64,000 nucleotides of DNA from Shigella phage Sf17. Positions 984 through 53,138 of the stretch are shown in pieces; the first letter of the stretch is position 1, and every line of letters starts with the position of its first letter. Location of the stretch: sequence record MF327004; one strand, written 5' to 3'. A program made the position numbers and the translations under genes. The notes under the pieces are model-generated. The model ran no database searches and was not told the DNA's origin. It saw nothing but the letters and a program-made list of their open reading frames with translations.

Positions 984-1007
984 AGCCCCTTAGATGGGGC
1001 TTTTTTA
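984..1007 (+). terminator. rho-independent terminator
   Basis: Hairpin GCCCC-ttagat-GGGGC followed by TTTTTT; a second hairpin GGGGCaaataGCCCC sits just upstream at 955-969. Confidence 0.6.
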
Positions 1008-1009
1008 CG

Positions 1010-2500
1010 TCTATAAAGATTCATATCAGACCTTCAGAGCAATAACTCTATAGCTTACTCTATATCCTCTTATCAAATCAACTTAAATATAAGCCCATAA
1101 CCCGAAAGGGAAGGGCAATCTCTAAAACGCTCTATAACGCTCTATACGGGCTTATCATCTCATCTTAAGCAATCATATTAACCTACTCTTAAAAGCCCTT
1201 TATAGAGCTTTCTAGAGCCTTAAAAGAATCTTATAAGGGTATAAGCTTATAAGCTGGATAGAATCTTGTGAATGGTTAAACAGGGGCTTGATAGTTACTT
1301 TAAAGTATGCTATGGAGTCTAAAAAGAGCTTAAAAGTAACGTAAAAGATGCTTAAAAGTAACGTAAAAGTTAGCCCCCTTTACATTCTCTTAACAAAATC
1401 TTAACAAATGCAACATAGTTATGCTTATTAGAGACTTGTTAGCCCCTTGTTAAATCCTTGTTAGAGGTATGTTAAGAGCTTGTTAGACTCTTTGAAGTCC
1501 CTGTATAAGCCCCTAGAAAGCCCTATAAAGAGCTATACAGGTAGTTGGGGTGTAGTTACTAGGGAGAATCTTAGAAGAGGCTATACAGAGCTACAGAGAG
1601 CTTTTAAGAGGGCTTTATAGAGAATCACTAAGAAGGGAAGGGAACTATAGACCAAGAGATAGTGACCATGTTAATAGCTTGTTAAAAAGGTTTAGAACTT
1701 GTTAGCACCTTGTTAATTATCTTAACAAAATAACTCTTAAGATTTAACTATTTAGCAACTTATAAGCAACTTGTTAGACCCTTGTTAGTAATGTTACAGA
1801 CTTGTTAAGCTCTTGTTAGTCCTGTTAAGAAACTGTTAAGAACTCTGAAGAGATGTTAAGAGCTTGTTAGAGTTGTTAAGAAATTGTTAATGATATTTTA
1901 AGATTTTGCAAAGGGGATGTTACAGGGCTGTTAAGGGCTACCAAGCAGATATACACCCTCTGTAGATATTTTTCAGATTCTCCAAAGACCCTAAAAAGTA
2001 ACCTACCTAGTCTATTTTATAAAAATTTTATAATTCTGAATAACTATCTATACACTATCTTATATAAAACAGGAATTAACAGGCTTATAAGAGACCTTGT
2101 TAGTACCGTGTTAGACCTTGTAGGATAAGCCTTAGAAGGGAATACCTGTTTAGTGTTATATAACAGTCTATATAGAGGCTTAGTAATACCTAGTGATTCT
2201 GCTATATAGGGTACTATCGTTTACCTAGAGATTAAGATGAGTATAGGGGCTTCTAAGGGGCTAGGAAGAGGTTAGGAAGGTGATTGTATAGGGTTGATTA
2301 ATGGTAGGCTTAGAAGGCTTTATAGAGGGCTATATAGAGAGCACTATTTAGGGACTAAGAGGTTATATAGATACTATATAATACTATATAGAGATGATGC
2401 TTAGAGAGGGTGTTTAGAAGGGTATAGATATTTTATCACATATCATGGTGACCCAAGATGAACGGAGTGAATCCCAAATTTTATAAAAATTATAAATTTC
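1010..2500. repeat. non-coding repeat-rich region: phased TTGTTA(A/G) repeats and CTATANAG-type repeats
   Basis: No ORF of 60 aa or more; more than 15 copies of (c)TTGTTA(a/g) at roughly 10-12 bp spacing between 1430-1900; many ctatacag/ctataaag/ctatatag units at 1060-1260 and 2140-2400. Confidence 0.7.
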
Positions 2501-2545
2501 GTAAATTTACTCAATAAAAAGCCCCAATTAAGGGGCTGTATAGTC

Positions 2546-10828: not shown

Positions 10829-11200
10829 ATGACGAAACGAACAAACAAAGGCCAATTCAAGAAAGGTCAATCTGGTAACCCATCAGGTAGACCCAAAGGC
10901 TCACGTAACAAGAGTTCACTGGTCAAGGCACAGTTGACTATTGATAACTCAGCAGAGTATGCTGCAAAGCTGTTTGAGGCCATTGTCACACGTAATGCTG
11001 ACAAGCTTGCAGAGTTCGGATTAAAGGCTGAAGATGTAAACTTAAAGTCCATGATGGAAGCTGGTAAAACCATCATGACTCACTCAGCAGGTGAGATGAA
11101 AGCAATTGCAGCAGATAGCAAAAAACCTTCTGAAAATGGAGGACAGGGAGCACAGGAGAACAAACCAACGTTCTCTGCTGTAGCAACTCTGAAAAAATAA
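10829..11200 (+). CDS. hypothetical basic protein with N-terminal GNPSGRPKG motif
   Basis: ORF with GAGG ribosome-binding site; basic Gly/Pro-rich N-terminus KGQSGNPSGRPKGSRNK. Confidence 0.5.
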   Translation: MTKRTNKGQFKKGQSGNPSGRPKGSRNKSSLVKAQLTIDNSAEYAAKLFEAIVTRNADKLAEFGLKAEDVNLKSMMEAGKTIMTHSAGEMKAIAADSKKPSENGGQGAQENKPTFSAVATLKK

Positions 11201-18111: not shown

Positions 18112-18318
18112 ATGAACGAGACTAATGTTTACAAAGAACTATATGAAACTCAGAAACAGGCTCAGATGCTTCAAGCAACTGTAATGGCTGTGGCTGAACG
18201 TTTAATTGTTGCAACTGGTATTAACCCACAAGAAGCAACGATGGATAAACTTCTTAATTTAGTAGATGAAAAGTTTGGTGTAGAACCTAAACAGGAATCT
18301 GAAGAAGTTTCTGAATAA
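18112..18318 (+). CDS. hypothetical small protein preceding terminase (68 aa)
   Basis: GGAG ribosome-binding site 8 nt upstream; first gene of late operon. Confidence 0.45.
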   Translation: MNETNVYKELYETQKQAQMLQATVMAVAERLIVATGINPQEATMDKLLNLVDEKFGVEPKQESEEVSE

Positions 18319-18324
18319 TTCTAT

Positions 18325-19941
18325 TTGCAGAGGTGCTTAATGGACTTAAATGTTATTAAGCAGAAGCGAGTGGAAGATGTAAGGAAAGTCCTAGCAGGTG
18401 AGTTGGGGCTTTCTGAAGAAGTAAAAGATATTATCAAATCCTTTGGTAAAGACCCCTCTAAATTCCTTCCAACTCAAATTCTGACTTTATTAAGATACAC
18501 CCCAGACCAAGTAAGACTCATCTTTAAATTGATGACTGACAAGAACTATGTAGCTCCACAGCCTGGCTCTCAAGAGGTATTCTTGAACACTAATGCTGAC
18601 TTGGTACTATATGGTGGTGCTGCTGGTGCTGGTAAGACTGCTGCCCTTTTAATGGACTCACTAAGGTTTATTGAAGACCCAAACTATAACGCTGTTTATT
18701 TCCGTCGAAATACAACACAGTTACAAGGTGGTCTGTGGCCTGCGGCTAAAAAGTTATTTGGTAAGTTTGGTGGAGTTCCACATGAACAGAAAATGACTAT
18801 TACTTTCCCTTCTGGAGCAACTATCAAGTTTACTTATTTGGAACTTGAGAAACACTCAGAAGGTCACCAAGGTATCGAATACTCAGCTATTTATTTCGAC
18901 GAAGGTACACACTTCTCGGCTTCACAGATTTCATATCTTCAGACACGTTTACGTTCTGGTGCTGAAGGTGACTCATATATGAAAATCTCAATGAACCCAG
19001 ATAGAGACCACTTTATTTATGATTGGGTAGAACCTTTCCTAGATGATGCTGGATATCCAGACCCAGAGAAGTGCGGCAGGATTCGTTGGTATGTTATGAA
19101 TGATGGTGTCATGGTTTCTGATTGGGATAGAGATAAAATTCTTGAAATGTTCCCTCTTGAGATTCCTCAAACATATACCTTTATTTCCGGTACAATCGAT
19201 GACAACCCTATTCTAGATTTCCTTGAACCTAAGTATCGTGGTAAATTAGAAAACAACACACCAGTTAACGTTGCACGTTTACGTTTTGGTAACTGGAAAG
19301 CTCGTGCTGAAGGTTCAAACTACTGGCAAAGACAATGGTGTGAAATTGTTGATAGTGTTCCAGCAGACGTATTTGACGTAAGAGCATGGGACTTAGCAGC
19401 AACATTACCTTCTGAGGTTAACCCTAACCCTGACTGGACAGCAGGTGTTAAAATGGGTAAATCTAAAAAAGATGGTTGCTATTATGTGATTAACGTAGTA
19501 AGATTTAGAGATAGACCTTCTGGAGTTGAAACACAAATTAACCAAACTGCTGAAGGTGATGGTAAGCGCACAGGTATTTTTATCCCTCAAGACCCCGGCG
19601 CTGCTGGTAAATCCTACGCAACCTCCCTTATTAGAAAACTTGCTGAGAAAGGTTTCCGAGCAAGAGCTAAACCAACAAATAAAGATAAAGTCACCCGTTT
19701 TGCGGGTTTCTCTGCTGCTTCTGAAGCAGGACTTGTCAAAATTGTTAGAGGCTCTTGGAATGAAGCATATTTCCAAGAACTAGAAGGTTTTTGTGGTGAT
19801 GGTCGTACTAAGGATGACCAAGTGGATGCTACCAGTGATGCTTTCAACAGTCTAAACGAAGTTAAACTATTCAAGCCACCTTCAATGGGTGCTCATACAG
19901 ATATTATGAAGAGTAATCCATATCAGGGGCTAAGACGATAA
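18325..19941 (+). CDS. terminase large subunit
   Basis: Walker A LYGGAAGAGKT, Walker B-like AIYFDEGTH, C-terminal acidic nuclease-like region; 538 aa at head of structural operon. Confidence 0.8.
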   Translation: MQRCLMDLNVIKQKRVEDVRKVLAGELGLSEEVKDIIKSFGKDPSKFLPTQILTLLRYTPDQVRLIFKLMTDKNYVAPQPGSQEVFLNTNADLVLYGGAAGAGKTAALLMDSLRFIEDPNYNAVYFRRNTTQLQGGLWPAAKKLFGKFGGVPHEQKMTITFPSGATIKFTYLELEKHSEGHQGIEYSAIYFDEGTHFSASQISYLQTRLRSGAEGDSYMKISMNPDRDHFIYDWVEPFLDDAGYPDPEKCGRIRWYVMNDGVMVSDWDRDKILEMFPLEIPQTYTFISGTIDDNPILDFLEPKYRGKLENNTPVNVARLRFGNWKARAEGSNYWQRQWCEIVDSVPADVFDVRAWDLAATLPSEVNPNPDWTAGVKMGKSKKDGCYYVINVVRFRDRPSGVETQINQTAEGDGKRTGIFIPQDPGAAGKSYATSLIRKLAEKGFRARAKPTNKDKVTRFAGFSAASEAGLVKIVRGSWNEAYFQELEGFCGDGRTKDDQVDATSDAFNSLNEVKLFKPPSMGAHTDIMKSNPYQGLRR

Positions 19942-19953
19942 TAGGTAGAAAGA

Positions 19954-21420
19954 ATGGCAGATATCACAGAAACACAAGAAAGCCTTCCTCCATTCAGAAT
20001 GGGTGAGGTTGGGAGTCTTGGCCTTAAAGTTCGCTCAGGAAGAATCTATGAAGAACCTAGACAGGCTTTAAGATTCCCAGAAAGTATTAAGACTTTCCAA
20101 CTTATGATGAGAGACCCTTCAGTAGCAGCCTCTGTAAATATTATTAAGATGTTTGTCAGAAAGGTTAACTGGAGATTCGTACCACCGAAGGGAAAAGAGA
20201 AAGATGCCAAGATGATTGAAAGGGCTAATTTCTTTAACTCACTAATGAATGACATGGAGCACGATTGGGCTGACTTTATTAACTCTGTAATGTCATTCTG
20301 TACTTACGGTTTCTGTGTAAACGAGAAAGTTTATAAGAAACGTCAAGGTAAGAAAGGTAAGTACCCTTCAAAATATAATGATGGTTTAATTGGTTGGGCT
20401 AAATTACCAATCCGTAATCAGACTACATTAGACAAATGGTACTTTGACTCTGACTATAGAAAAGTTATTGGTGTTAGACAGAACCTGCGTAATGTTTCCC
20501 ATATTGCAGGAGCAATTAATCTTGGTGAACAACCATTGACAAGAAAGCTTCCTAGAAGTAAATTCTTATTGTTCAAGTATGACGATGAATATGGAAACCC
20601 AGAGGGACGTTCACCATTGCTTAATGCTTATGTTCCTTGGAAATACAAAGTTCAAATTGAAGAGTTTGAAGCAGTTGGTGTTTCCAGAGACTTAGTAGGT
20701 ATGCCAAAGATTGGTCTTCCACCTGATTACTTAGGTGAAGATGCAGAACCTGAAAAGAAAGCTTTTGTTAAATACTGCCAAGAAGTAGTAAATGATTTAA
20801 TTGCTAATGACAGAGCAGGTTTAATTTGGCCTAGATTTATCGACCCAGAAACTAAAGAAGATATCTTTGAGTTCTCATTAGTTTCTCGACAGGGTGCTAA
20901 AGCTTATGATACAGGTTCTATCATTGATAGATACTCTAAGCAGATTATGATGGCGTTTATGTCTGATGTTCTTGCTATGGGACAGTCAAAATATGGCTCG
21001 TTCTCTCTGGCAGATTCTAAGACAAGCTTACTGGCAATGTCAGTGGATATTCTGCTGAAGCAAGTGAAGAATGTAATTAACCGTGATTTGGTTGCTCAGA
21101 CTTATGCACTAAATATGTGGGATGATGAAGAACACGTAGAAATTGTGTACGATGATATTGAGACACCAGACCTTGAAGCTATTGCATCATTCATTCAGAA
21201 AACAGTTGCAGTTGGTGCTCTGGAAGTTGACAAGCCATTGTCTGACAAGCTTAGAGAATATCTTGACCTTGAACCTGCTGATGAGTCTAAACCAGTATCT
21301 GAGAAACTATCTCCAAACACTCAAAGTCGTTCTGGTGATGGTTATCAAACTGCTGGAGAAGGGACTGCTAATACTCCTTCAGCTAAAGACCCAAGTACAG
21401 CTAATAAGGCAAACAAATAA
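19954..21420 (+). CDS. portal protein (putative)
   Basis: 488-aa ORF directly after terminase; acidic C-terminal region; assignment by synteny and size. Confidence 0.6.
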   Translation: MADITETQESLPPFRMGEVGSLGLKVRSGRIYEEPRQALRFPESIKTFQLMMRDPSVAASVNIIKMFVRKVNWRFVPPKGKEKDAKMIERANFFNSLMNDMEHDWADFINSVMSFCTYGFCVNEKVYKKRQGKKGKYPSKYNDGLIGWAKLPIRNQTTLDKWYFDSDYRKVIGVRQNLRNVSHIAGAINLGEQPLTRKLPRSKFLLFKYDDEYGNPEGRSPLLNAYVPWKYKVQIEEFEAVGVSRDLVGMPKIGLPPDYLGEDAEPEKKAFVKYCQEVVNDLIANDRAGLIWPRFIDPETKEDIFEFSLVSRQGAKAYDTGSIIDRYSKQIMMAFMSDVLAMGQSKYGSFSLADSKTSLLAMSVDILLKQVKNVINRDLVAQTYALNMWDDEEHVEIVYDDIETPDLEAIASFIQKTVAVGALEVDKPLSDKLREYLDLEPADESKPVSEKLSPNTQSRSGDGYQTAGEGTANTPSAKDPSTANKANK

Positions 21421-21920
21421 TGGCAGAAGTTATCTCTATTTCCAATGCTACGCGAGTGCATTCTTATAGAGGTGTCTTAATTATCACTGATGAATTAACT
21501 GTAGAGGCTGGCTCAAGGGTCAGCCTTTCAGGGTATGTTAGTGATGGTGGAACCTCTGACGTTTTCACTATTTGCAGGTTACTTGATGCTCCAATGAGCG
21601 GAAAACAGTTTATTTCAAACAATTGTAACGAAATTGTTAAAATTCCATTTGACAGTTCATGCCTTTTGGGTGTAAAGTTATATAACTGTGAGAATAAACG
21701 TGTTAACGTTAATAGTGTTGAAGCTGCATTCATTACCATTGATACAGCATTTCAATCTCCAATGACAGTAAATAAAGAGTCTAACAGACTTGAGTACATT
21801 TTTTCACAAAATGATTACAAAGTACTTGTCAAAGGTAAAGTTTATGATATGATTGTAAATGTGGTAGATGAATCTGGTAACCATTCAACAATCCTTAAAC
21901 AAAAAGTAAGGTTTAATTAA
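21420..21920 (+). CDS. hypothetical head-region protein (166 aa)
   Basis: ORF with start overlapping portal stop. Confidence 0.45.
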   Translation: MAEVISISNATRVHSYRGVLIITDELTVEAGSRVSLSGYVSDGGTSDVFTICRLLDAPMSGKQFISNNCNEIVKIPFDSSCLLGVKLYNCENKRVNVNSVEAAFITIDTAFQSPMTVNKESNRLEYIFSQNDYKVLVKGKVYDMIVNVVDESGNHSTILKQKVRFN

Positions 21921-41925: not shown

Positions 41926-42825
41926 CTACTTACCTACTGATAAAGGTGCTTCAATCTTACCAGCATGTTTATACCCTTTCAACCCACCTAGGAAGTCATC
42001 TGCTGTCATATGTCTCAAGTCTTCAAGAGACTTCAAATCTTGATGAATTTCAAACTTAGGTGCTGGGAACTCTTCATTACCAAGAAGCTGAAAAACCTGT
42101 GACATATGGTTCTGGTAGATTTGAGTATCACCATAAGTCCCTACCAGATATCGCGGTGTATACCCCGTCAGTTTACACAACACTTCCAAGATAAAGGCAT
42201 AGGAAGCAATGTTAAATGGTAATCCTAAGAACGTATCACAAGAGCGCTGATACCATTTCAAATCTACCTCATTAGTGTTCGAGATGTAAATCTGAAAAAG
42301 TACATGGCAAGGTGCTAATGCCATAGAGTTACTTGATATATCTGCTGCATTCCATGCGTTAACGAGCATGTAACGGTCTGTAGGAGACTTTCTCATCTTC
42401 TCTACAAGATTACTCAACTGGTCTACAACAACTCCACCATGACCTTCGTAGGCTCTCCATTGGACTCCATAGATTCTTCCTCCAGCGTCCTCCAGCCAAT
42501 CATTCTCTGTAGCATAGGTTGTTTTCAACCAACGTTTAAAATCATCTGTCCAGATAGTCCAACGCTCTCCGTCATTCTCCCCCCAAGTTCTGTAACGCAA
42601 ATGGCCTAGTTGGTTTTCACCGTTCATAAACCATAATGCTTCACCGAGGACTTGACGCATAAACGTTTGTTTTGAGGTGATTAATGGAAATCCACTACGC
42701 ATATCAAAACGGAACTCAGGTGGAGCAAAGGTAGAAATCACTGAGCCAGTTCTGGTTTTACGCAACTCACCAACTGATAAAACATGGTTTAAAATAGCTT
42801 TGTAGCTTACATCTGCTTGTGACAT
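41926..42825 (-). CDS. thyA: thymidylate synthase
   Basis: Motifs ALAPCHVLFQIY (active-site Cys) and QRSCDTFLGLPFNIASYA (Asn retained, so dUMP-specific). Confidence 0.9.
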   Translation of the reverse strand: MSQADVSYKAILNHVLSVGELRKTRTGSVISTFAPPEFRFDMRSGFPLITSKQTFMRQVLGEALWFMNGENQLGHLRYRTWGENDGERWTIWTDDFKRWLKTTYATENDWLEDAGGRIYGVQWRAYEGHGGVVVDQLSNLVEKMRKSPTDRYMLVNAWNAADISSNSMALAPCHVLFQIYISNTNEVDLKWYQRSCDTFLGLPFNIASYAFILEVLCKLTGYTPRYLVGTYGDTQIYQNHMSQVFQLLGNEEFPAPKFEIHQDLKSLEDLRHMTADDFLGGLKGYKHAGKIEAPLSVGK

Positions 42826-42826
42826 A

Positions 42827-43372
42827 TTAGAAAAGCCCTCTTACTTGTGGAACATAGGTATCAAACACCACAGACTTATCTTCTGAAGGTTTGGACTGTA
42901 CTTTAGCAAATAAATCTGTGTCATACAAGTACTGGAAGAAACCCTCATAAGGTAGCTTGACAGTAGCCTCTTCAGTAACTTCCTTAATAACACTGTGGAA
43001 AACTACGTCAGCATACGGCAAAGCTGAGATTAAGATATTGGCTCCACCGATTACTAAAACATCTTCATCAATAGAGCTATCAATATACTTCAGGAAAGCC
43101 CCAAAAGCTTCAGGCTTAACTCTTGCTTTACAATGAGAGTCATCTTTAAAATCCAGACCATAAAAGTCAAGAGAGTTTGTCAAGACAATGTTCTCACGGT
43201 TTGGCAAAGGCTTGCTCCCAAGAGTCTTCCAAGTTTCGCTACCCATCAAGACTAACTGGTTAACAGTCTGCTTCTTAAACTCTGCCATATCTTGTTTATT
43301 ACGAGGCCAAGGCATTCCAGTAGCTGTGCCAAACTCCCCGTTAATACCACTTGCAAAAATTAACTTAATCAT
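42827..43372 (-). CDS. folA: dihydrofolate reductase
   Basis: MIKLIFA...GMPWP...LVLMGSETWKTLG...PLPNRENIVLT...VIGGANI matches DHFR core motifs; adjacent to thyA. Confidence 0.85.
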   Translation of the reverse strand: MIKLIFASGINGEFGTATGMPWPRNKQDMAEFKKQTVNQLVLMGSETWKTLGSKPLPNRENIVLTNSLDFYGLDFKDDSHCKARVKPEAFGAFLKYIDSSIDEDVLVIGGANILISALPYADVVFHSVIKEVTEEATVKLPYEGFFQYLYDTDLFAKVQSKPSEDKSVVFDTYVPQVRGLF

Positions 43373-43641
43373 TTTGTAAATCCTTTGATAATGAACCAGT
43401 TCAGAACACGCTTCACAATCCTGTTTGGATGGTAAATAAGGTGGGGTTGTGGTTCATAACTTCCATAAGCCCAAAAAGATAAAATCTTTCCACATCCACA
43501 GCAACGGGTGTACTCTTCAGCGATATTGCCAGAGACAATCTCTGAAACTTCACCTTGGAAGTTCTCACCTCCACAATGGCAGCATTTAACTGGCTCACCA
43601 TCATTCATGTAACACTGTGATACTCCGCTTAAGATTTTCAT
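43369..43641 (-). CDS. zinc-ribbon-like Cys-rich small protein
   Basis: Paired Cys clusters CCHCGG and CCGCG about 30 residues apart. Confidence 0.45.
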   Translation of the reverse strand: MKILSGVSQCYMNDGEPVKCCHCGGENFQGEVSEIVSGNIAEEYTRCCGCGKILSFWAYGSYEPQPHLIYHPNRIVKRVLNWFIIKGFTK

Positions 43642-44153
43642 TTTTTGTTTACCTTAAAAGTGCGTTCAAATTTTAGTATGAAATCAAGGTCATCAACTTC
43701 ACTTGACAGGAAGTCTTCAAAGTGTTTTGGAACAAAGTCTAAGAAACTCATAGAACCAAAATCACCTGTCAGCTTGATAGTGCCTTGTTCACACTCAGCA
43801 GTTACTACATGACCACCTTCAGTTTGCTTAACAATCTCTACAATATCAGCTATGAAGATGTTTAGCAATGCTTTAAAACTTCTTGGATACTGTGTATCTG
43901 AGTACAGTTCAATACTTGGCTCAAGATTAACTTCAATAGAACGACTATCCCGTAGCTCTGGAGTAAATAAGTGAGCAGGAAGAACACACAGAGAATCAGC
44001 AGTGTCTTCATCAATGAACTCAATAGTTCCTGCATCATAGTTAGTGTCAATCAAGAATGTCTTCTCAGTATGATTTGTGGACTTCATATGCTCAGACAAC
44101 ATTGATTTCAAGAACTCTGCTTCAGGCTGGCAAAGGGTAATTCCAATTTTCAT
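43638..44153 (-). CDS. hypothetical protein (171 aa)
   Basis: ORF with 4-nt overlaps to neighbours. Confidence 0.5.
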   Translation of the reverse strand: MKIGITLCQPEAEFLKSMLSEHMKSTNHTEKTFLIDTNYDAGTIEFIDEDTADSLCVLPAHLFTPELRDSRSIEVNLEPSIELYSDTQYPRSFKALLNIFIADIVEIVKQTEGGHVVTAECEQGTIKLTGDFGSMSFLDFVPKHFEDFLSSEVDDLDFILKFERTFKVNKK

Positions 44154-44154
44154 G

Positions 44155-44658
44155 TTAAACCTCTACAAAAGTATCTTTGTCATTATCGTACTTGAAGAAT
44201 TTTATACACTTTTGTGTCTTCCAGTCAACCTTTTCATCATAAGCAAGACCTTTTGCTACACGCTTTCCAATGGTCTGTATAATGATTTCACGGAGTTTTT
44301 CATATTCCTTCCAAGCTCTTGATACAACAGTTAGGTTATATTTGCGATAACTTTCAACAGATTGTTCGTTATAGCGTATCTCCATAGGGCTTGCAGGCTT
44401 GTACAGATGGGGTAGTAAATCCCAACCCATATGCCCTTCTTCTTTGGCTAGTTCTAGTTGGTGAAGATATTCATTCAACCGTCCATCTTCCTCAAGCCAC
44501 CTGTGAAGTGTCTGCAAGCCTAAGATATTGTTGTTAAAGTGTGATGCACGTTTCACAGAACCTAAATCACAACGATAATCTGACTTTGGTAGTGATAGTA
44601 TACTGCCTTGCAATACACTGTACCCAAAGTATAAATCGAGTTTTAAGGGAAGAGACAT
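44155..44658 (-). CDS. hypothetical protein (167 aa)
   Basis: ORF in minus-strand block. Confidence 0.5.
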   Translation of the reverse strand: MSLPLKLDLYFGYSVLQGSILSLPKSDYRCDLGSVKRASHFNNNILGLQTLHRWLEEDGRLNEYLHQLELAKEEGHMGWDLLPHLYKPASPMEIRYNEQSVESYRKYNLTVVSRAWKEYEKLREIIIQTIGKRVAKGLAYDEKVDWKTQKCIKFFKYDNDKDTFVEV

Positions 44659-45002
44659 TTGATATCCTCATTTTTAAACACAAAAGTTGTATAGTTGTGA
44701 CCATCAACATCTAACCAGACAGCCTTGACTTCAACACCATCTAGGTTCTCTGACAACTCTTTGATGAAGTGGTCTCGCACCTTTTTAGCACTTGTAGTTT
44801 CAAGTTTGATGTTAGAGATTGCAGAGCCAATTGCCATATAACCTCTTACACGATTTGCTTCAGTATGCTTCATACCACCAGTTGTGTAAACCTCTTTCAA
44901 GGTCTCCAGAATTGCATTACCATAAAGCTTCTCTGCTGGAGTTGGTTTACCATAGAAGCCAATTGCAAAGTTATCGTTAAAGATTGCATTTTCACGTTTC
45001 AT
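44643..45002 (-). CDS. hypothetical protein (119 aa)
   Basis: ORF in minus-strand block. Confidence 0.45.
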   Translation of the reverse strand: MKRENAIFNDNFAIGFYGKPTPAEKLYGNAILETLKEVYTTGGMKHTEANRVRGYMAIGSAISNIKLETTSAKKVRDHFIKELSENLDGVEVKAVWLDVDGHNYTTFVFKNEDIKCLFP

Positions 45003-45003
45003 A

Positions 45004-45303
45004 TTAATCTGCCAGCCTTAAGTTAAAGTTTACACCAAGTTTTGTACAAGCATTAAGCATGTACTCTAAAGAAATCTTTTGAGGGTCGTTAATGATATTT
45101 GACACACGACTCTGTGAGATTTCACAAACAGTTGCTACTTGAGCCTGAGAAAGTTTTAGCTTCTCAATCTCTTTAGAGAATCTGAAAGATACAAAATCTT
45201 TCATCTCTTCTATATCCATTGGACAGATATAACTCTCCATTTCCGCCTCTCTATCAGCCTCCCAAGAATCTTGAGGTGCATATGGGTCAAAGACTTCATT
45301 CAT
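45004..45303 (-). CDS. putative helix-turn-helix DNA-binding protein
   Basis: C-terminal segment LSQAQVATVCEISQSRVSNIIN resembles XRE-type helix-turn-helix. Confidence 0.4.
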   Translation of the reverse strand: MNEVFDPYAPQDSWEADREAEMESYICPMDIEEMKDFVSFRFSKEIEKLKLSQAQVATVCEISQSRVSNIINDPQKISLEYMLNACTKLGVNFNLRLAD

Positions 45304-45499
45304 CTTTCTTTCTCCGTTTTCGAGAAGTGTCTATTAACGAATCAAGATTAGTTGCTCTGACGTTTTCACGAGTCCCATTGATGTAGTTATCTAAAGACTC
45401 TACAACGGTTGAATAATCACTTGCCCAAACTCTGTAAATAACTACTCCGTCATCATCGACTACTTCACCGTAGTCTACTCTACAGATGTTCTTCTTCAT
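45296..45499 (-). CDS. hypothetical protein (67 aa)
   Basis: ORF overlapping start of the HTH gene. Confidence 0.4.
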   Translation of the reverse strand: MKKNICRVDYGEVVDDDGVVIYRVWASDYSTVVESLDNYINGTRENVRATNLDSLIDTSRKRRKKDE

Positions 45500-45501
45500 G
45501 A

Positions 45502-45882
45502 TTATAAACCCATGCAGTGACGATTTTCAATAAAGTATTGAACACCTTTGAAAGACTCACGCATAAAATTATCTTTCACATCTTCTACAGTTTCGATACC
45601 TTTACTATCAAGAAGGTCAACGTTCTGAGTAACCATCTCATCTGCTAATCTGTCATAGTAATCTCCCATAAAATGGTAGTTGTAGTCAACCATCTTATCA
45701 GTCATTTCTTGAACAGTCTGAGCAGATAACGGTTTAGTTAACTCTCCAGCATTTGATGCAATTTTCTGTACAATCTTACAAGATTCTAAAGCAACACCAC
45801 TAAAGTTTGCTTCAGGCATCTTCATAGCTGCTGCACTAAAACTCATACCAAGAGCAATGATACCAACAAGTAACTTTTTCAT
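45502..45882 (-). CDS. secreted/periplasmic protein with Sec signal peptide
   Basis: N-terminus MKKLLVGIIALGMSFSAAA with predicted cleavage after AAA; two Cys in mature part. Confidence 0.55.
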   Translation of the reverse strand: MKKLLVGIIALGMSFSAAAMKMPEANFSGVALESCKIVQKIASNAGELTKPLSAQTVQEMTDKMVDYNYHFMGDYYDRLADEMVTQNVDLLDSKGIETVEDVKDNFMRESFKGVQYFIENRHCMGL

Positions 45883-46239
45883 AACTACCTCCTATATAAA
45901 ATTTTGTATACATTTGAGTATAAAAATAAGCTATAACACCTGACTTGTCAACAGATTTTATAGCTTATTTGGCAGATTTTTTATAAGGCTACTGCCATCC
46001 TTCCGCACCCGACCTGACCTCGCCCAACCTTACCTGACTGAACCACACCCGACCAAACATCACTTAAAAACCCTTTTCAAAGACTCTTAAGTGATGTAAT
46101 CGAATTTTTATGTAGCTCCGATTAACTACCCATACCTAACCCCACCTTGCCACACCGAACCAGACCAAACCCAGCCTCATTAAAAGACCCTTTTAAAGAC
46201 CTTTTAAAAAGGAGCCTCCGAAGAGGCTACCTAGTCAAC
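45883..46239. repeat. structured non-coding region A (C/A-rich tracts plus three hairpins)
   Basis: Shares with region B: 10-bp-stem hairpin CATCACTTAA...TTAAGTGATG, hairpin with conserved loop ttttaatgtagc and 3-prime AACTACCC, AT-stem hairpin TTAAAAG-acccttttaaagac-CTTTTAA, and ACC-rich tracts. Confidence 0.6.
46211..46232 (-). terminator. rho-independent terminator (minus strand) after gene 46240-46680
   Basis: Minus strand AGCCTC-ttcg-GAGGCT followed by CCTTTTT. Confidence 0.55.
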
Positions 46240-46680
46240 TTAGAAAGGTTTTCTACGTTGCTTGTTAATGTTAGCTTTCATGGCAGCTAAATGGTTTTGC
46301 TGTTCAATCAGTCGTGAACGTTCTTGATGACTAAGTACCATAGTGTTCACATTCTCAATCGCTTGAGTGGCTTGTTTTAAAGCACGACCAATCTTACTAG
46401 ACATTTTACGTTTTGCAATAGTTGCTTGATGTTTAGGTTCCACCACACGATAACCAACACCCATTGAAGTGACCAGATAAATCTTCTCTTCTTTAAGAAG
46501 CTTCTCAATAAACTTCTCAAGTCGATTTAGGCGTGTAAGTGCGTAAGCTTTCATTTCATCTTCGTACTTAACAATGTCACCTTGATAAGTCGGCTTCACA
46601 ATACCTAAGAAGGTGTCCATCTCAGAGTGTGATACAGTATCACCGTAACTGAACTTTGCTGCTAATGCTTTTGTATTCAT
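46240..46680 (-). CDS. hypothetical protein (146 aa, basic C-terminus) in repeat-bracketed cassette
   Basis: ORF; no recognisable motif. Confidence 0.5.
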   Translation of the reverse strand: MNTKALAAKFSYGDTVSHSEMDTFLGIVKPTYQGDIVKYEDEMKAYALTRLNRLEKFIEKLLKEEKIYLVTSMGVGYRVVEPKHQATIAKRKMSSKIGRALKQATQAIENVNTMVLSHQERSRLIEQQNHLAAMKANINKQRRKPF

Positions 46681-46682
46681 AA

Positions 46683-47640
<958 letters not shown>

Positions 47641-47850
47641 CCGTTGGTTTATGCTGCTCAGTATACTCACCAAATTTTCTATGTCAACAACTTTATATTA
47701 AAAATTCTCTGACTACTGCATTTACTACAAATGATAACAGAGTAAGGGCTAAGGCTGATTTGTATGTTATGCTTAACAGTTTACTTATGAAGTAAGATAA
47801 TGATAAAACAACAAAAACAAACAGGATAATTGCGCTAAACATGCTAACCT

Positions 47851-48951
47851 CTATTCATAATCTCGTATAACAAGCCCAACAGGGAACTGTAAAGACCCCT
47901 TACGAGTCATCTTCTGGAACTGAACCGTTAAAGGCTTCCCGATAAACTCTTCAGGATGTTCAGCAAGATACTTTTTCTTCTCGTGTGTAGTTTTCCATGA
48001 AACATCTACAAAGACGTTAGGAAGAGTCTCTACAACGAACTTACCATGACCACGTTTATCAGTCTTTACACCAGTTACTTTAAATTCCTGTGTGTGCATC
48101 TTCTTGTGCTTAATCAGGAAGTAAGAGCGATGACCACACTCATAGAACGAATCTGGTGAGATTGACCGATACATTGCCCCTTCAAACTTGAGTTTAACCC
48201 AGTTGTCATGAGCATTATCAAATTCTTCCCAAGAGTTAACACGGATTGTCTGAACAGGTACAACCCTGCAAGCATCACCGAGTTCAACGATTGGTGAATT
48301 ATCAATAACTTCACGACGCTCAGGCCAAGATTTAGTCTTGTCACAGATATCATACCAGTAGAATTTAAGAAGGTGACGGTCTGGATTGTCAGCATTCTTA
48401 ATCATAGATACAATATCTTCCAAGTCCCAACCATGAGCATAAATCTCCCCGTCGAAATCCTCAACATCTTTGTGCAGTTTCAGCATAAGAAGAACATCAG
48501 GAATCAACTCTACAGGAATGTTGTATACCGTGTTCTCACGAGAATATGCCGTAAAACTTTCTGAGTCAGCATCTCTTGAAATCCTGCAACGAACACCATC
48601 AAGTTTAGGTTGAGCATCGGCAGGGAATACCAGATACTTCTTGTGACTTATCTTGGAAGCATCCTGAGCAAGCTGTACACCAACCTTCTCAACATTCTCT
48701 GCTTCAGATTTTGTGTAAGCATATCCTTTACGGTCAACCTGCTTCTTGTACTTAGCAGCAACTTCAAAGAGAGCTTGCTGTTCAGCATTACGCTCATTCT
48801 TTTTACCGATGTTCTTAGGTTCTGCTGTGTACTCTTCAAACATCATCTTGCCATTTTCTTTACCATAAGTTGTGACGACTTTATCACCTACAGCAACACA
48901 TGACCAGACGTTGAAAGAACCATCTTTATTTTGTTTGTACAGAATTGTCAT
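47851..48951 (-). CDS. ATP-dependent DNA ligase
   Basis: Adenylation motif I PKLDGVRC; 366 aa, similar in size to T7-type ligases. Confidence 0.8.
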   Translation of the reverse strand: MTILYKQNKDGSFNVWSCVAVGDKVVTTYGKENGKMMFEEYTAEPKNIGKKNERNAEQQALFEVAAKYKKQVDRKGYAYTKSEAENVEKVGVQLAQDASKISHKKYLVFPADAQPKLDGVRCRISRDADSESFTAYSRENTVYNIPVELIPDVLLMLKLHKDVEDFDGEIYAHGWDLEDIVSMIKNADNPDRHLLKFYWYDICDKTKSWPERREVIDNSPIVELGDACRVVPVQTIRVNSWEEFDNAHDNWVKLKFEGAMYRSISPDSFYECGHRSYFLIKHKKMHTQEFKVTGVKTDKRGHGKFVVETLPNVFVDVSWKTTHEKKKYLAEHPEEFIGKPLTVQFQKMTRKGSLQFPVGLVIRDYE

Positions 48952-49154
48952 TTACGTTTCCCACCAATTTCTACATCAATAACTTGTGTGTCTCCACAAA
49001 CATCAAACTTATGAATGATATTCTCTACAGTGTAAGTCCAACCATCAATCCTTACCCATTCACCTTCTCGTGGCACTATTGGGTTACGTTGTGCTACAGT
49101 TGTAGTTGAGTGAACAACGTCATACTTATAGATAAAATTTACCAGAACCTGCAT
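48948..49154 (-). CDS. hypothetical protein (start trimmed from 49205)
   Basis: Internal ATG avoids 50-nt overlap with upstream lipoprotein gene. Confidence 0.35.
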   Translation of the reverse strand: MQVLVNFIYKYDVVHSTTTVAQRNPIVPREGEWVRIDGWTYTVENIIHKFDVCGDTQVIDVEIGGKRK

Positions 49155-49155
49155 A

Positions 49156-49401
49156 TCAATATCCTCCATCAAAAACTGTGGTGTGTGACTGACTATTCTT
49201 CCCATACTTGTAAGAAGTTGTAGTCTGAGAATTTGGGCAGCGAACTACAATAACATCCCTGCTAATGGCATCACCATTAAGCTTATAAATCTTGCAGTCT
49301 TGCATTTCTGGAGGAAGTCTGTAAGAGGCATCCTTATTCTCATAAGAAGGGTTGCACCCCACCAGTAAGACTACTAAAGCTGGTATCAATAATTTTAACA
49401 T
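49156..49401 (-). CDS. putative lipoprotein
   Basis: N-terminus MLKLLIPALVVLLVGCNPSY: signal peptide with lipobox-like LVGC. Confidence 0.55.
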   Translation of the reverse strand: MLKLLIPALVVLLVGCNPSYENKDASYRLPPEMQDCKIYKLNGDAISRDVIVVRCPNSQTTTSYKYGKNSQSHTTVFDGGY

Positions 49402-49411
49402 TTTAAACCTC

Positions 49412-49663
49412 TCAATAAAATAAGTCTGAAGCTTTTGAATTTACAGGATTCAAAGAACCTTCGTAATGTTCTTCATAACCCTCTTGGCAGATATTATACA
49501 GTTCTTTGAATCGGGTTTCATCAACTGGTTTAACATCTTTCTTAGCGCATAAGAAGAGATACCAATCATACCCCAAATCCCTGCACCAAGCCTCTGAGAC
49601 AAAAGCTATTGATTTGTCTTCGCTCTTGAAGATTGCTAAAGCTTCTTGCTCTTTATTGCTCAC
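49412..49663 (-). CDS. hypothetical protein (83 aa)
   Basis: ORF in small-gene island. Confidence 0.45.
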   Translation of the reverse strand: MSNKEQEALAIFKSEDKSIAFVSEAWCRDLGYDWYLFLCAKKDVKPVDETRFKELYNICQEGYEEHYEGSLNPVNSKASDLFY

Positions 49664-50438: not shown

Positions 50439-53138
50439 TTAGTGGACTTCAAGCCACGATTTACCAACTTTCCCTGCACCTGTGACCAATGTCTCTTTTC
50501 TTAGCCCAAGGTTCTTAGATGCTTGACCATAATACCAGTCAGTTACTGCTTTCACATCTGCTGTCATGCTCTCTGGACATTCCCAGCTTGTTTCATCGTG
50601 GTAAGCACAGAGTAAGCGAGCACCAATAGCTGGTTTACGACCATTCAACTTCATCAAACCTTCGTCAATCATACGACGACATGCAAGGTTGATTGCTTCA
50701 TTCTGAACTTGTGCTTCTGAACCCATCAGCAAATAGTTCAAGAGTTTGTGTGGAGACTTACACCACAGCCAAGCCCCAGCAACCTTCACAAAACCACCTT
50801 TAGAGATTGCAGCAGTTTTACCAAACACCTCTTCAAGTGCTTTCTTAGTTGCTTTGAAATCAGCTTCCAAGTTGTCTAACAGTTTCTTAATCTTCGGCAA
50901 ACGCACAAAGTAAGTCTGCTTAGTCAATGCACCTTCCTGAGTAGTTGCTGCTTTAATTGTCTTGGCAAACTTCTCATCACCTGCACCGAACAACAAAGCA
51001 TAGATACCATTCTTAGCTTTCTTACGTCCCTTGCTAATCTCATGAAGAAGATTCTCATCCTGAGTAGCACGACAAGTCAAGATATCTTGCTCATCATTAA
51101 GGCTGAAGTAGATACTGTTCAGAGTGTGAGCATCAGTCCCTGAGTAAACTACGTACAAATCGTTTTCAGAGTCGTAACGCAGATACTTGTCAATCTCTGG
51201 ATTCAGATACTGGTCAAAGTGTTTACAGTAGTATCTTCCATCCTCTTGACGGACAAACTCAATCTCTTCTTTACCCTCTGTTACCGCTTTGGTGAAGTCT
51301 TTATCACCCATGAAGTTACAGAGTAGTACAAGCTGTGCAGAGTTCATATCAACAGATACTACGTTGGTTCCCTCTTCACAAATCCACACTGCCCTCATTG
51401 GCTCACCGTACACGGCAGCACCAGAAGGTACGTTTACAATACCATACTGAGTCATACGTCCAGTAGAAGTACCAAACACCATTGCACCTGCACTCAAACG
51501 ACCATCTGGACGAATCTGGTTCAGCCAACCTTTCTCATCATCCTTTGAGTTCTCAATAGTCCTGCGTCGGTGCATCAAAGTATAGTACTTCGCAATCTTC
51601 TGTCCAAGCTCACCTTCGATTGTATCATAAGAAGACTCTGTAAGCTTTGGTGAAGTCCTAATCAAGCAAGGCTCAAGCACATCTGTGTACTTCTTAACAG
51701 ACCAGTTATGCTCAATGTAATAGACACCTTCATGCTCAATGTAATTCAATCCACAACGTTCAACCATCTCATCCCACTTAGGATGTTTGCGAATCATCTT
51801 TTTGTTGTCTTTGAATCTGCAAACCTTGATAGGACGACCATCAGAATCTTTTTTATAGTTCCAATCATCAGGAATCCAACCAACGGATTTTAAGTAATCC
51901 TTCACCACAGCTACCTGAGTCATTCGTGAAACTTCAAACTCAATTGGTGTGAATGGTGCATCAATCAAACCAGTGTAGCGACTAGACTCTAACTCAAAGT
52001 GGTTAACAACGTGAACATTGTAGTACTTCACAGTTTTCACAGTCTTAACTGGCTTCCAATCTTTACACTTCTTGCCAATCTTCTCATTCAGTTCATTACA
52101 AACTGCACGAGCATCTTTCATTGCTACAAAACCTTCAGGGTACTCTTCTTTTGTGACCGTGTTAGTTGGAGTGTAGCAGTTGCGTTTCTCAACATTAAAA
52201 ATCTTTGTAGTTGGCTTACCATACGGCTTGATAGGGTACTGCTTCAACTCGCCTTCACGCATCTGTTCACGATACTTTGTCTTAGGGTACTTGGTAATCC
52301 TTTTTAAACCGTCAACGTGACCAAATGTATCTACATACTCATTCCAAGACTTGGCAAATTCTTCACCTGTGACTTTACCTTTTGTCTTAATAGTTGGTGG
52401 AAGGTGTGGTTCAACCTCAGCAGCCAACTCATTAGTTAACTTGTCAAGCTCTTTAACGTGGAACTGCATAAGCTCTACATCAGCTTTCCAACCGTTGATA
52501 GCTTGCTGACTCATCCAGAAAGATGTTTCTTTAGCTCGCATGTAGGTTTCATAAGTGTCAACACCACACTTCTTAAGCTTGAGGTACTCATTATCAAGAG
52601 CACGTTTAGTTTTGGCGTTAATCTTAATATCTTCTACAACACGAGTAAGAATCTCTGCATTCCAGACACCCCACTCTTCAATCTCTGGTTTACGGACACC
52701 TACACGAGCACCCCATGCAGCCAAACCATGAGCACCTTTGTAACCTTTTGGTGTAGGTCTATCCATCCACTGTACGCGAGATTGGATAAGTGAATCCTGA
52801 AAGAAGTCACCCCAAGGCTTACACTTAGGATTCTCAAAGTTCCACAGGTCAGGTGCAATGTGATTAAACACCCACCAGTCATAACCAAGACCATTATGGA
52901 TACAAAGACGTTTAGCTTTCAGTGCAAACTCAACCCCTTCACGCAGACCACCTTTGATGTACTTCGTGTACTTGTGACCAAGGATAGGCTCATCAGTGAA
53001 CACCCACACAGCAGGTTCGTCACTGTCATCTTTATAGTCTGCGAAAGCCATTACGTGTGCTTTTGTAAACTCAAGGAGCAACCCATCAGTTTCTGTATCA
53101 CCAACCAAATGTAATTTTTCGAAATCTACATTGTCCAT
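50439..53138 (-). CDS. DNA polymerase, family A, with 3-prime to 5-prime exonuclease domain
   Basis: Exo I motif VGDTETDGL near N-terminus; motif B-like KAKNGIYALLFGAG; motif C LLCAYHDETSWE. Confidence 0.9.
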   Translation of the reverse strand: MDNVDFEKLHLVGDTETDGLLLEFTKAHVMAFADYKDDSDEPAVWVFTDEPILGHKYTKYIKGGLREGVEFALKAKRLCIHNGLGYDWWVFNHIAPDLWNFENPKCKPWGDFFQDSLIQSRVQWMDRPTPKGYKGAHGLAAWGARVGVRKPEIEEWGVWNAEILTRVVEDIKINAKTKRALDNEYLKLKKCGVDTYETYMRAKETSFWMSQQAINGWKADVELMQFHVKELDKLTNELAAEVEPHLPPTIKTKGKVTGEEFAKSWNEYVDTFGHVDGLKRITKYPKTKYREQMREGELKQYPIKPYGKPTTKIFNVEKRNCYTPTNTVTKEEYPEGFVAMKDARAVCNELNEKIGKKCKDWKPVKTVKTVKYYNVHVVNHFELESSRYTGLIDAPFTPIEFEVSRMTQVAVVKDYLKSVGWIPDDWNYKKDSDGRPIKVCRFKDNKKMIRKHPKWDEMVERCGLNYIEHEGVYYIEHNWSVKKYTDVLEPCLIRTSPKLTESSYDTIEGELGQKIAKYYTLMHRRRTIENSKDDEKGWLNQIRPDGRLSAGAMVFGTSTGRMTQYGIVNVPSGAAVYGEPMRAVWICEEGTNVVSVDMNSAQLVLLCNFMGDKDFTKAVTEGKEEIEFVRQEDGRYYCKHFDQYLNPEIDKYLRYDSENDLYVVYSGTDAHTLNSIYFSLNDEQDILTCRATQDENLLHEISKGRKKAKNGIYALLFGAGDEKFAKTIKAATTQEGALTKQTYFVRLPKIKKLLDNLEADFKATKKALEEVFGKTAAISKGGFVKVAGAWLWCKSPHKLLNYLLMGSEAQVQNEAINLACRRMIDEGLMKLNGRKPAIGARLLCAYHDETSWECPESMTADVKAVTDWYYGQASKNLGLRKETLVTGAGKVGKSWLEVH

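Follow-up and report, generated by a model that had tools for sequence, protein, structure and literature searches.

Why would a phage genome hold 1.5 kb of non-coding DNA packed with short, evenly spaced repeats? The question is raised by a locus near the start of a 64,000-nucleotide (nt) stretch of DNA from Shigella phage Sf17 (sequence record MF327004; the whole stretch is called the window here, and all positions refer to it). A first-pass annotation, made from the letters alone, had marked positions 1010-2500 as an array of TTGTTA(A/G) units at roughly one-helical-turn spacing, accompanied by CTATA(C/A/T)AG-type units, and had suggested an iteron-type replication origin, a partition site, or a site of DNA packaging or injection. 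We find that the TGTTA array lies in the homologue of the direct terminal repeat (DTR) mapped in related phages, that its 5-bp core is much better conserved than its spacers, and that its units match, in core and pitch, the sites bound by the host response regulator ArcA.

A helically phased array of TGTTA units

TGTTA(A/G) occurs 22 times in 1010-2500 (14.8/kb), compared to 0.99/kb in the rest of the window, and the stricter TTGTTA(A/G) 15 times, compared to 0.27/kb. All copies but four, which are on the minus strand, lie on the plus strand. First-order Markov shuffles of the region contained 1.3 ± 1.1 copies of TGTTA(A/G) (maximum 6), and no second place in the window has three copies inside 60 bp. 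For the 20 copies in 1373-1942, the best-fitting period is 10.4 bp (R2 = 0.63), a fit reached by 0 of 2000 random placements (largest 0.48). Taken singly, the three clusters described below have periods of 11.0, 10.4 and 10.2 bp, and Tandem Repeats Finder, together with a repeat search, returned periods of 10-11 bp and 20/31 bp. These data bear out the array and the helical phasing that the first-pass annotation had read from the sequence; the spacing is periodic.

Within 1373-1942 there are 20 forward TGTTA(A/G) units, along with TGTTAC variants and three reverse units. The parts of this segment are as follows (bits are scores against the ArcA matrix introduced below).

1373-1942, plus strand: predicted DTR, 570 bp, present in one copy in the window (collapsed or permuted assembly)
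DTR boundaries: left, between ...GTTA and GCCCCCTTTACATT; right, between ...GTTAAGGGCTACC and AAGCAGATATACA
1379-1407, minus strand: two overlapping reverse ArcA-type boxes, with TTAACA at 1390 and 1401 (17.2 and 20.6 bits)
1436-1487, plus strand: cluster I, five TGTTA(A/G) units at exact 11-bp pitch (1437, 1448, 1459, 1470, 1481)
1488-1667, no strand assigned: central DTR without TGTTA units, holding units of the CTATAAAG, CTATACAG and TATAGAG family
1668-1717, plus strand: cluster II, two 11-bp pairs set 31 bp apart (1669/1680 and 1700/1711)
1771-1891, plus strand: cluster III, eleven units (1772, 1783, 1792, 1803, 1814, 1823, 1834, 1854, 1865, 1874, 1885)
1917-1935, plus strand: last unit pair, TGTTAC at 1918 and TGTTAA at 1929

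Repeated elements stand at both putative cut sites, the first unit 6 nt inside the left boundary and the last 8 nt before the right. The reverse boxes span 6-34 nt inside the left boundary, and their CTTAACAA units are invariant in 13/13 aligned DTRs (that of the window and those of 12 relatives, the alignment used for conservation throughout). Cluster I forms four consecutive ArcA-type boxes of 10.5-15.0 bits. The boxes of cluster II score 17.7 and 13.4 bits, in a block that is nearly invariant among relatives. Cluster III consists mainly of 11-bp pairs with mutual offsets of 20 or 31 bp and holds the best box of all, TTGTTAAGAAATTGTTAA at 1873. In the last pair, which ends 8 nt short of the right boundary, CTGTTAAGGGCTACC is invariant in all relatives. 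Save for one TGTTAG pair to its right (2098, 2109), the whole TGTTA array falls within the DTR homologue.

The array fills the homologue of a mapped terminal repeat

A sequence search with the 1.5-kb region retrieved 253-282 related phage records, 253 of them at 76-97% identity. All belong to the Ounavirinae, except for one labelled Staphylococcus phage SA1; the genera are Mooglevirus, Felixounavirus and Suspvirus, the hosts Shigella, E. coli, Salmonella and Citrobacter, and the nearest relative is Shigella phage KPS64 (96.8%). These relatives are virulent myoviruses. In every record inspected, the same pair of converging gene blocks is separated by 1.4-1.7 kb without annotation, and this holds even for Erwinia phage phiEa104 and Pectobacterium phage Arno18.

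Several GenBank records begin exactly at the homologue of position 1373. Three of them (E9, CRP22 and ZX4221) close with a perfect second copy of their opening 579-591 bases; these repeats start with GCCCCCTTAACAT, end with GTTAAGGGCTACC and are followed by AAGCAGATATACA in unique sequence, and their limits are the homologues of 1373 and 1942. Records I14.1, SPJ41 and MET-P1-301 begin at one or other of these two boundaries. The boundary motifs, GCCCCCTT(A/T)ACAT on the left and GTTAAGGGCTACC joined to AAGCAGATATACA on the right, do not vary among 13 phages. Both are single-copy in the window (1373; 1930-1942), and no 25-mer of the DTR is repeated elsewhere in it. An 84.7-kb contig resembling phiEa104 starts with TTAGCCACTTTTACATTTCGTTAACAAC, the homologue of window positions 1370-1397, and has TTAGCCAC as the homologue of the left boundary.

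Mapped ends have been reported for the genus Felixounavirus. For UAB_Phi87, a DTR of 608 bp was determined by Bal31 digestion and run-off sequencing (PMC4837284); PhageTerm gave a 581-bp DTR in Pr103Blw (PMC8303462), and DTRs were also assigned to Philippine isolates, including E9. The DTR sequences printed for UAB_Phi87 and for UAB_69 (PMC11350853) correspond by homology to 1371-1944 of the window, the aligned ends agreeing within 2-9 nt. The DTRs of UAB_Phi87, UAB_69 and Pr103Blw resemble that of the window in sequence (72-82% identity for Felixounavirus genomes), in their invariant boundaries and TGTTA units, and in their place between the early-gene block and the minus-strand lysis/tail block. 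Nothing essential differs; at 570 bp, the window copy falls in the shortest of the length classes. Identity rises to as much as 98% in close Mooglevirus relatives, for example KPS64, a phage with unmapped ends.

We read 1373-1942 as a DTR because it is homologous from end to end to the DTR-bearing records and to the DTRs determined by run-off sequencing. Very probably, it is the single assembled copy of the ~570-bp Ounavirinae DTR. By this homology, the array fills the genome terminus and concatemer junction, a segment already known for the genus as a DTR; of the functions first suggested for the repeats, packaging and proximity to a terminus are the ones that gain support. DTR identity alone is ordinary annotation. 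The 'repeat_region' features annotated under the match in Danish wastewater phages were considered as DTRs and rejected, as they are local repeats of 30-46 nt.

The papers on UAB_Phi87, UAB_69 and Pr103Blw give DTR length and sequence only, with no account of a phased internal array or of a ligand (PMC4837284, PMC11350853, PMC8303462). The authors of the Felix O1 genome deduced 'short terminal repeats'; their sequence begins at rIIA and this region is left undescribed, and the PhageMaP paper on Bas63 contains no data for this intergenic region. In the open-access Felix O1, UAB_Phi87, Pr103Blw, Bas63 and other papers, the phased TGTTA lattice, the conservation of its core and the quantised length are undescribed.

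Conservation of the core and unit-wise changes in length

Across the 13 DTRs, the five positions of TGTTA are identical to the window in 94, 99, 98, 81 and 99% of cases, compared to 59-75% for positions between cores. Within the clusters, cores are 91.7% conserved and spacers 70.9% (Mann-Whitney p = 1.6e-7). The same DTRs contain 263 spacings of 35 bp or less between neighbouring units (not independent counts, because the sequences are related): 11 bp predominates (152), followed by 20 bp (43), 33 bp (22), 9 bp (20), 22 bp (11) and 10 bp (8), and 12 bp does not occur at all. The underlying pattern is one of 11-bp pairs set 20 or 31 bp apart, with the 20- and 9-bp classes being the offsets between pairs.

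Among 45 relatives, DTR lengths fall into discrete classes (569/570, 578-581, 589-592, 601-603, 612-614, 624 and 633 bp). These classes, and the clean 11-bp indels seen in the alignment, indicate that sequence is gained and lost as whole ~11-bp units. Replication slippage accounts for such unit-wise changes in length; it does not account for the retention of only five bases per unit. In phiEa104 and Arno18, the same core is retained though the remaining sequence is unalignable, and the presumed repeat has reverse AACA units in its left half and forward TGTTAAG units in its right half. Given this pattern of conservation, we think it highly likely that the array is a set of sequence-specific protein-binding sites.

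A scan of IMG/VR for three TGTTA(A/G) units at 11-bp pitch returned at least 120 loci; it says little about the distribution of such arrays, because the matches were mostly chance occurrences or Ounavirinae. Among these loci, dense arrays were otherwise limited to a simple tandem repeat of a giant virus and the end of one unrelated 60-kb contig. This contig, 3300046374_000002 (60,208 bp), has 11 TGTTAG units at 11-13-bp spacing within ~250 bp of its start, and may represent an independent TGTTA lattice at a phage terminus.

The units resemble host ArcA sites

The element recognized by phosphorylated ArcA (ArcA-P) is the 10-bp ATGTTAAAAA, with TGTTA its best-conserved part, and an ArcA box comprises two direct elements 11 bp apart, centre to centre (PMC3798270, PMC4173790). 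In most ArcA sites, further elements lie 11 or 22 bp away; ArcA-P fails to bind elements spaced at 12 bp, and TGTAA and TGTCA are natural, weaker variants (PMC3798270, PMC4173790). Binding of ArcA-P is cooperative and bends the DNA; multi-element sites improved toward the consensus are occupied even aerobically; and ArcA represses pathways of carbon oxidation (PMC3798270, PMC4173790).

To quantify the resemblance, we used a matrix built from 115 E. coli boxes defined by chromatin immunoprecipitation (ChIP; published Table S3), with consensus TTGTTAATAAAATGTTAA and training scores of 9.6-21.6 bits (median 15.7). At a threshold of 10 bits or more, the DTR contains 17 boxes (13 forward, 4 reverse), ten of which reach at least 14 bits. 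This corresponds to 29.8 boxes/kb, compared to 0.67/kb elsewhere; shuffled DTRs contained 0.49 boxes (maximum 5). Ten of the 16 best boxes of the window fall in these 570 bp, and TTGTTAAGAAATTGTTAA, at 22.6 bits, scores above all 115 training boxes (maximum 21.6). The 12 relatives have 13-18 boxes each, phiEa104 has 17 and Arno18 has 10, and the flank of phiEa104 contains no ArcA-type boxes. An isolated ArcA-type box, TTGTAACGAAATTGTTAA, occurs at 21623-21640 on the plus strand (19.6 bits), inside a head-module gene, with a 15.4-bit box on the opposite strand at 21803; both are probably chance matches.

The likeness involves several features at once. As in ArcA sites, a TGTTA core preceded by T is arranged in tandem direct repeats at exactly 11 bp, with 22 bp as the alternative, 12 bp absent and TGTAA tolerated, and the scores lie within and above the range of the ChIP-defined boxes. 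The sites of other response regulators misfit in core or pitch (PhoP, TGTTTA; PhoB, CTGTCAT; CpxR, GTAAA-N5-GTAAA); the only GTAAA words are those of the (TAAAAGTAACG)n tandem outside the left DTR boundary. All array-bearing phages have hosts in the Enterobacterales. A more distant comparison is offered by Pseudomonas phage phiPsa397 (Otagovirus), with a large terminase (TerL) 40% identical and the same layout, in which an annotated 525-bp terminal repeat is followed by minus-strand genes. That repeat contains no forward TGTTA and no ArcA box above 2.1 bits, and Pseudomonas is not known to have an Arc system. It does contain three copies of CTATATAGTGCAACGGTAAT, each after CCCTTGTG-like words, which look like promoters.

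On this evidence, we expect with fair assurance that ArcA-P would bind the best boxes in vitro. Whether ArcA-P is also the ligand for which the array was selected is another matter, and here we would lean slightly toward the negative.

Several observations weigh against ArcA-P and a role in end formation. ArcA sites of the chromosome comprise 2-5 elements with A/T-rich 3' halves and overlap sigma-70 promoters, whereas the phage array has ~22 elements over ~500 bp and overlaps no sigma-70 promoter; the region has no excess of promoter-like sites (4, compared to 5.8 ± 3.1 expected). G follows TGTTA in 8/20 units, compared to 3% in ArcA boxes, and C stands two bases upstream in 14/20, compared to 5%. 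The spacers are 51% G+C (genome, 39%), whereas those of ArcA sites are A/T-rich. A 5-bp core on an 11-bp pitch could be reached independently by a phage protein; most open reading frames (ORFs) of these phages have no known function, and our scan for a ligand covered the 64-kb window, with ~24 kb of the genome lying beyond it. The absence of the array from the Pseudomonas relative is also what a lineage-specific phage binder predicts. Because the phages form plaques in aerobic culture, ArcA-P cannot be strictly required, unless a small aerobic pool suffices. We found no open-access paper linking ArcA to Felix O1-type phages. Nor is the array strictly a ruler for the repeat, since TGTTA pairs also occur outside the DTR (2098/2109, with more in Felixounaviruses). 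Finally, the ends are assigned to the window's own phage by homology.

What might bind the array, and for what

Could the ligand instead be phage-encoded? On this account, the junction and its phased array would be as described, and an as yet unrecognised small terminase or end-binding protein would assemble along the one-sided array, as a ring or a filament, and direct the large terminase to its place; the resemblance of the units to ArcA sites would then be convergent. There is precedent in the short phased repeats of terminase recognition sites (the R sites of lambda cosB, the hexamers of P1 pac, and pacL/pacR of SPP1). The flank preferences of the units themselves, CTTGTTAG and TGTTAAGA in the Felix/Moogle group (in the Erwinia group, units read TGTTAAGA/AACAT), are atypical for ArcA, and the DTR of the Pseudomonas relative differs in content. 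In addition, a small terminase is probably hidden among the proteins of unknown function, because none is annotated in Felix O1-type phages. In the window, TerL is encoded at 18325-19941 and the portal protein at 19954-21420; Pfam, PHROGs and NCBIfam recognised no small terminase in the ORFs of the 64-kb window (the genome extends ~24 kb further), and neither the Felix O1 paper nor the Bas63 annotation lists one. However, Pfam, PHROGs, NCBIfam, a sequence search of the PDB and Foldseek yielded no DNA-binding domain suited to tandem direct repeats, and Pfam detected no OmpR-type winged helix among the 61 non-structural ORFs. Three proteins deserve mention.

18112-18318, plus strand: 68-amino-acid (aa) two-helix protein directly upstream of TerL (AlphaFold pLDDT 86, no significant Foldseek match)
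10829-11200, plus strand: basic 123-aa DUF5681 protein with N-terminus KRTNKGQFKKGQSGNPSGRPKGSRNK
45004-45303: XRE-type helix-turn-helix protein, the only clear DNA binder found

The two-helix and DUF5681 proteins are possible small-terminase-like factors; the XRE-type class usually binds inverted repeats. Against a phage ligand stands the breadth of the coincidence with a host factor, which would have to extend to the core, the preceding T, the orientation, the exact 11-bp pitch and the TGTAA variant. We regard a phage-encoded ligand as a real but rather doubtful possibility.

ArcA-P might also bind for a different end, namely its titration from host promoters, with derepression of respiratory carbon oxidation, or the sensing of oxygen or redox state. 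The density and quality of the boxes exceed those of chromosomal sites with their 2-5 elements; consensus multi-element sites bind at low levels of ArcA-P; ~20 sites per junction would be amplified with the phage DNA; ArcA represses carbon oxidation; and the hosts of all array-bearing phages are Enterobacterales. These phages also carry genes for an aerobic (NrdAB) and an anaerobic (NrdD) ribonucleotide reductase (42523-49516 by the Bas63 annotation), and so should be able to replicate with and without oxygen, which fits a link to ArcA thematically and proves nothing. But a decoy needs no exact place inside a terminal repeat with invariant boundaries, nor a single orientation, nor length steps of whole 11-bp units, and neither a promoter excess nor a regulated gene adjoins the array. 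Titration or sensing as the purpose is thus improbable in our judgement. More improbable still, it appears, is a replication origin for which the array would supply the iteron field and the A+T-rich block at 2010-2045 the site of unwinding. Direct repeats in one orientation do lie beside conserved A+T-rich stretches, in a region that is non-coding and conserved; yet the units are 5- to 7-bp cores on an 11-bp pitch, not 17- to 22-bp iterons on a pitch of two turns, 1006-2545 contains no DnaA box (up to one mismatch), no initiator or Rep-like gene is adjacent, profile searches revealed no Rep-like domain, and the array coincides with the mapped terminal repeat. GC skew, which the first-pass annotation had proposed as a guide to an origin, merely tracks gene orientation in the window. 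The partition site that it had also listed (a centromere such as parS or sopC) fails, as the phage is virulent and Pfam found no ParA or ParB among the 61 non-structural ORFs. The last account dispenses with a ligand altogether, the array being a product of 11-bp slippage kept as curved or flexible DNA or as neutral filler for end homology. Copy number does shift by whole 11-bp units, as slippage would give, and a role of the DTR in homology needs no particular sequence. However, the cores are much better conserved than the spacers, they persist in Erwinia and Pectobacterium phages with unalignable surroundings, and slippage alone would homogenise whole units, not 5 bp of each; we give this account almost no credence.

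A possible role at the concatemer junction

The best explanation overall, though we stop just short of even confidence in it, is that the DTR/concatemer junction is organised by a phased binding array for which ArcA-P is the leading candidate ligand. The TGTTA(A/G) units would represent ~22 half-sites in head-to-tail pairs, exactly 11 bp apart, all of them facing the same side of the helix; dimeric winged-helix response regulators bind in this way. ArcA-P, or else an unrecognised phage protein with the same binding mode, would polymerise cooperatively on the repeat and bend the DNA. The result would be a defined nucleoprotein complex, one for every concatemer junction and one at either end of the DNA that is injected. 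Such a complex could mark the junction for terminase and position this enzyme on the two invariant boundaries, where it would cut, with the repeat duplicated by strand displacement as in T7-type phages; it could also, or instead, pair two repeat copies for concatemer formation. A role of the array in packaging or end formation is a tentative proposal, somewhat less secure than not.

A one-sided lattice of dimer sites would span the repeat, with reverse-oriented sites at its left edge, and convergent terminators would insulate the DTR from both neighbouring transcription units. Because the early genes at the right end point outward, that end is probably packaged last and ejected first. All forward units would point along the direction of packaging, consistent with the right end being last.

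Comparison with other systems

In phage lambda, cosB consists of R3-R1 with an IHF site, I1, and P1 pac comprises seven TGATC(A/G) hexamers, with stimulation by IHF/HU. The junction described here resembles these sites in being non-coding, in having short repeats beside the cut sites and in its (here proposed) use of a host architectural cofactor, so that the part envisaged for ArcA-P is comparable to the help given by host IHF at cosB. It differs in scale, as cosB and pac have 3-7 elements in 100-160 bp with a known small-terminase ligand, and in product, as they give cohesive or headful ends rather than an exact 570-bp terminal repeat.

In T7, the terminal repeat at the concatemer junction measures 160 bp and has short repeats arrayed on either side; the likeness extends to the exact, short DTR, the non-coding ends with short repeats, the single repeat per junction and the early genes at one end. 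In T7, however, the short repeats lie outside the terminal repeat, whereas the main array here lies inside, and processing is coupled to pausing of the phage's own RNA polymerase at the junction. No such polymerase was seen in the window; the sole ORF of T7-polymerase size (50439-53138) matches by position a Bas63 gene annotated as DNA polymerase.

ArcA is known as an accessory architectural factor on mobile DNA, in Xer recombination at psi of pSC101 and at the traY promoters of F-like plasmids, including R1. The parallel proposed here is a mobile element that uses host ArcA-P near a DNA-processing site, with the difference that psi and traY hold one or few boxes. A role of ArcA in a phage was not reported in the open-access literature searched. 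Iteron origins (lambda ori, P1 oriR and pSC101) share the direct repeats in one orientation beside an A+T-rich stretch, and differ in unit length and pitch; here, moreover, there is neither an initiator gene nor a DnaA box, and the location is inside a mapped DTR.

Flanks, coding content and other repeats

Outside the DTR, the region is made up of two unique flanks, each closed by a terminator.

984-1001, plus strand: intrinsic terminator (terminator scan), closing the upstream small early-type genes, the last of which stops at 942
1006-1372, no strand assigned: left unique non-coding flank, just inside the right-end DTR copy of the linear virion genome; contains reverse CTCTATA units (1046, 1058, 1130, 1140), CTWWWWAG units and the TAAAAGTAACG tandem (1322-1370)
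1943-2519, no strand assigned: right unique non-coding flank, just inside the left-end DTR copy of the virion genome; contains the conserved AAGCAGATATACA at the junction, the conserved A+T-rich block 2010-2045, the TGTTAG pair (2098, 2109) and CTATATAG/TATAGAG units (2168-2391)
2520-2537, minus strand: intrinsic terminator (terminator scan), closing the downstream minus-strand block

The span from 943 to 2545 is bounded by the stop codons of a small plus-strand gene (942) and a minus-strand gene (2546). Its largest ORFs encode 46 aa (1480-1620) and 36 aa (2294-2404), and none reaches 60 aa, as had been stated at the outset. The limits first given, 1010-2500, do enclose non-coding DNA; 1006-2545 are the more useful ones. 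The hairpin at 984-1001 is the terminator that was said to precede the region. It is kept in every aligned relative, and it and the downstream terminator are both annotated in AYO145A and Moogle. The gene block beyond the region had been described as divergent, and this needs correction: because a terminator-like hairpin ends each flanking block, the two blocks converge on the region, the minus-strand block having its stop codon at 2546 and a separate terminator at 2537-2520. None of the genes points away from the array. A conserved reading frame is excluded, because no frame could survive the indels (11, 12 and 23 nt) that distinguish the relatives; the ORFs annotated across the region in some records are machine-called and of 30-55 aa. 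A search for structured RNA with Rfam, at E values up to 1, gave just a meaningless 14-bit scaRNA match. The left flank (1006-1372) is conserved in 10 aligned phages, which differ in the copy number of the 11-bp unit, and in the right flank the CTATATAG word occurs in four copies.

The CTATA(C/A/T)AG-type units that had been noted beside the TGTTA array are likewise real. As CTATANAG, or CTATA.AG, they number eight (5.4/kb, compared to 0.10/kb in the rest of the window) and belong to a broader A/T-cored family, in which CTWWWWAG occurs 24 times (15.6/kb, compared to 0.94/kb) and TATAGAG/CTCTATA 10 times. This family occupies both flanks and the centre of the array, its positions being complementary to the TGTTA clusters. 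Its units are in reverse orientation left of ~1150 and forward from 1198 onward. In phiEa104, the left flank (1760-2060 of its record) contains ~15 TTCTAA(A/G) units in place of this family. Elsewhere in the window, CTATAAAG/CTTTATAG words are mostly intragenic, and we therefore rejected them as a general phage promoter motif.

The 11-bp TAAAAGTAACG tandem at 1322-1370 adjoins the left DTR boundary from outside, with 2-3 units (five in ESh20). On the opposite strand, its units read CGTTAC, a weak variant of the TGTTA core, and for this reason the reverse-oriented sites may continue across the left cut site into the tandem. An inverted repeat between the two ends of the DTR (74% over 35 nt) was considered as a cut-site symmetry and dropped, because it is not conserved in relatives reading GCAAAGTACTTGTAAGG there.

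Some relatives contain small inserts. A 23-nt palindrome, TAATTGGTATTGTTACCAATCCC or its reverse complement, is present in the DTRs of VpaE1 and JLBYU32 and in the printed DTR of UAB_Phi87; it occupies two different DTR positions in different phages and looks like a tiny mobile palindrome. Inserts of ~25-27 nt with GATTCGATAGAATC / GTAGATTCTACCGAATC, absent from the window, occur in the loop of the upstream terminator (mio, JLBYU32, Bas63), in the downstream terminator (Moogle) and just right of the DTR end (Moogle, VpaE1). They are possibly a miniature insertion element or the footprint of a homing endonuclease. Upstream of the region, an intergenic cassette precedes each small early gene (56-112, 385-441, 625-690). 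It consists of a G+C-rich hairpin, TCAACGGGGAGGGAGACTTCCCCACTAA (a variant at 625-660), then CCTAAACTGGAGA, then the start codon, and resembles the long direct repeats between early genes described in the Felix O1 paper.

Implications

The phased lattice, the core-specific conservation, the length steps of ~11 bp and the ArcA match all appear to be new. The DTR identity matters chiefly for annotation, as most of the ~250 related GenBank records, opened at arbitrary points, are blank or have spurious ORFs of 30-50 aa across this 1.5 kb.

For phages with exact DTRs and no known small terminase, the question is how ends are recognized. The repeat described here is a putative binding-site array that is conserved, one-sided and dimer-pitched, and whose length evolves in whole units. 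A more daring proposal, toward which we are on balance sceptical, is that the subfamily Ounavirinae has packed the largest ArcA array known into its terminal repeat, such that ArcA-P coats the ends and junctions as an architectural subunit, or serves as an ArcA-P sink, or both. The genera concerned would be Felixounavirus, Mooglevirus, Suspvirus, Kolesnikvirus and relatives. If this is true, the ~20 elements would amount to 4-10 times those of any chromosomal ArcA site.

Were ArcA-P the ligand, this would be the first case known to us in which a two-component response regulator is recruited to the end of a phage genome. The way in which gut phages package or recombine their DNA, or the metabolic state of the host during infection, would then be linked to the supply of oxygen. 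Such a link would matter for phages employed in therapy and typing, Felix O1 for example: they are put to work in the anaerobic gut, but have been characterised aerobically.

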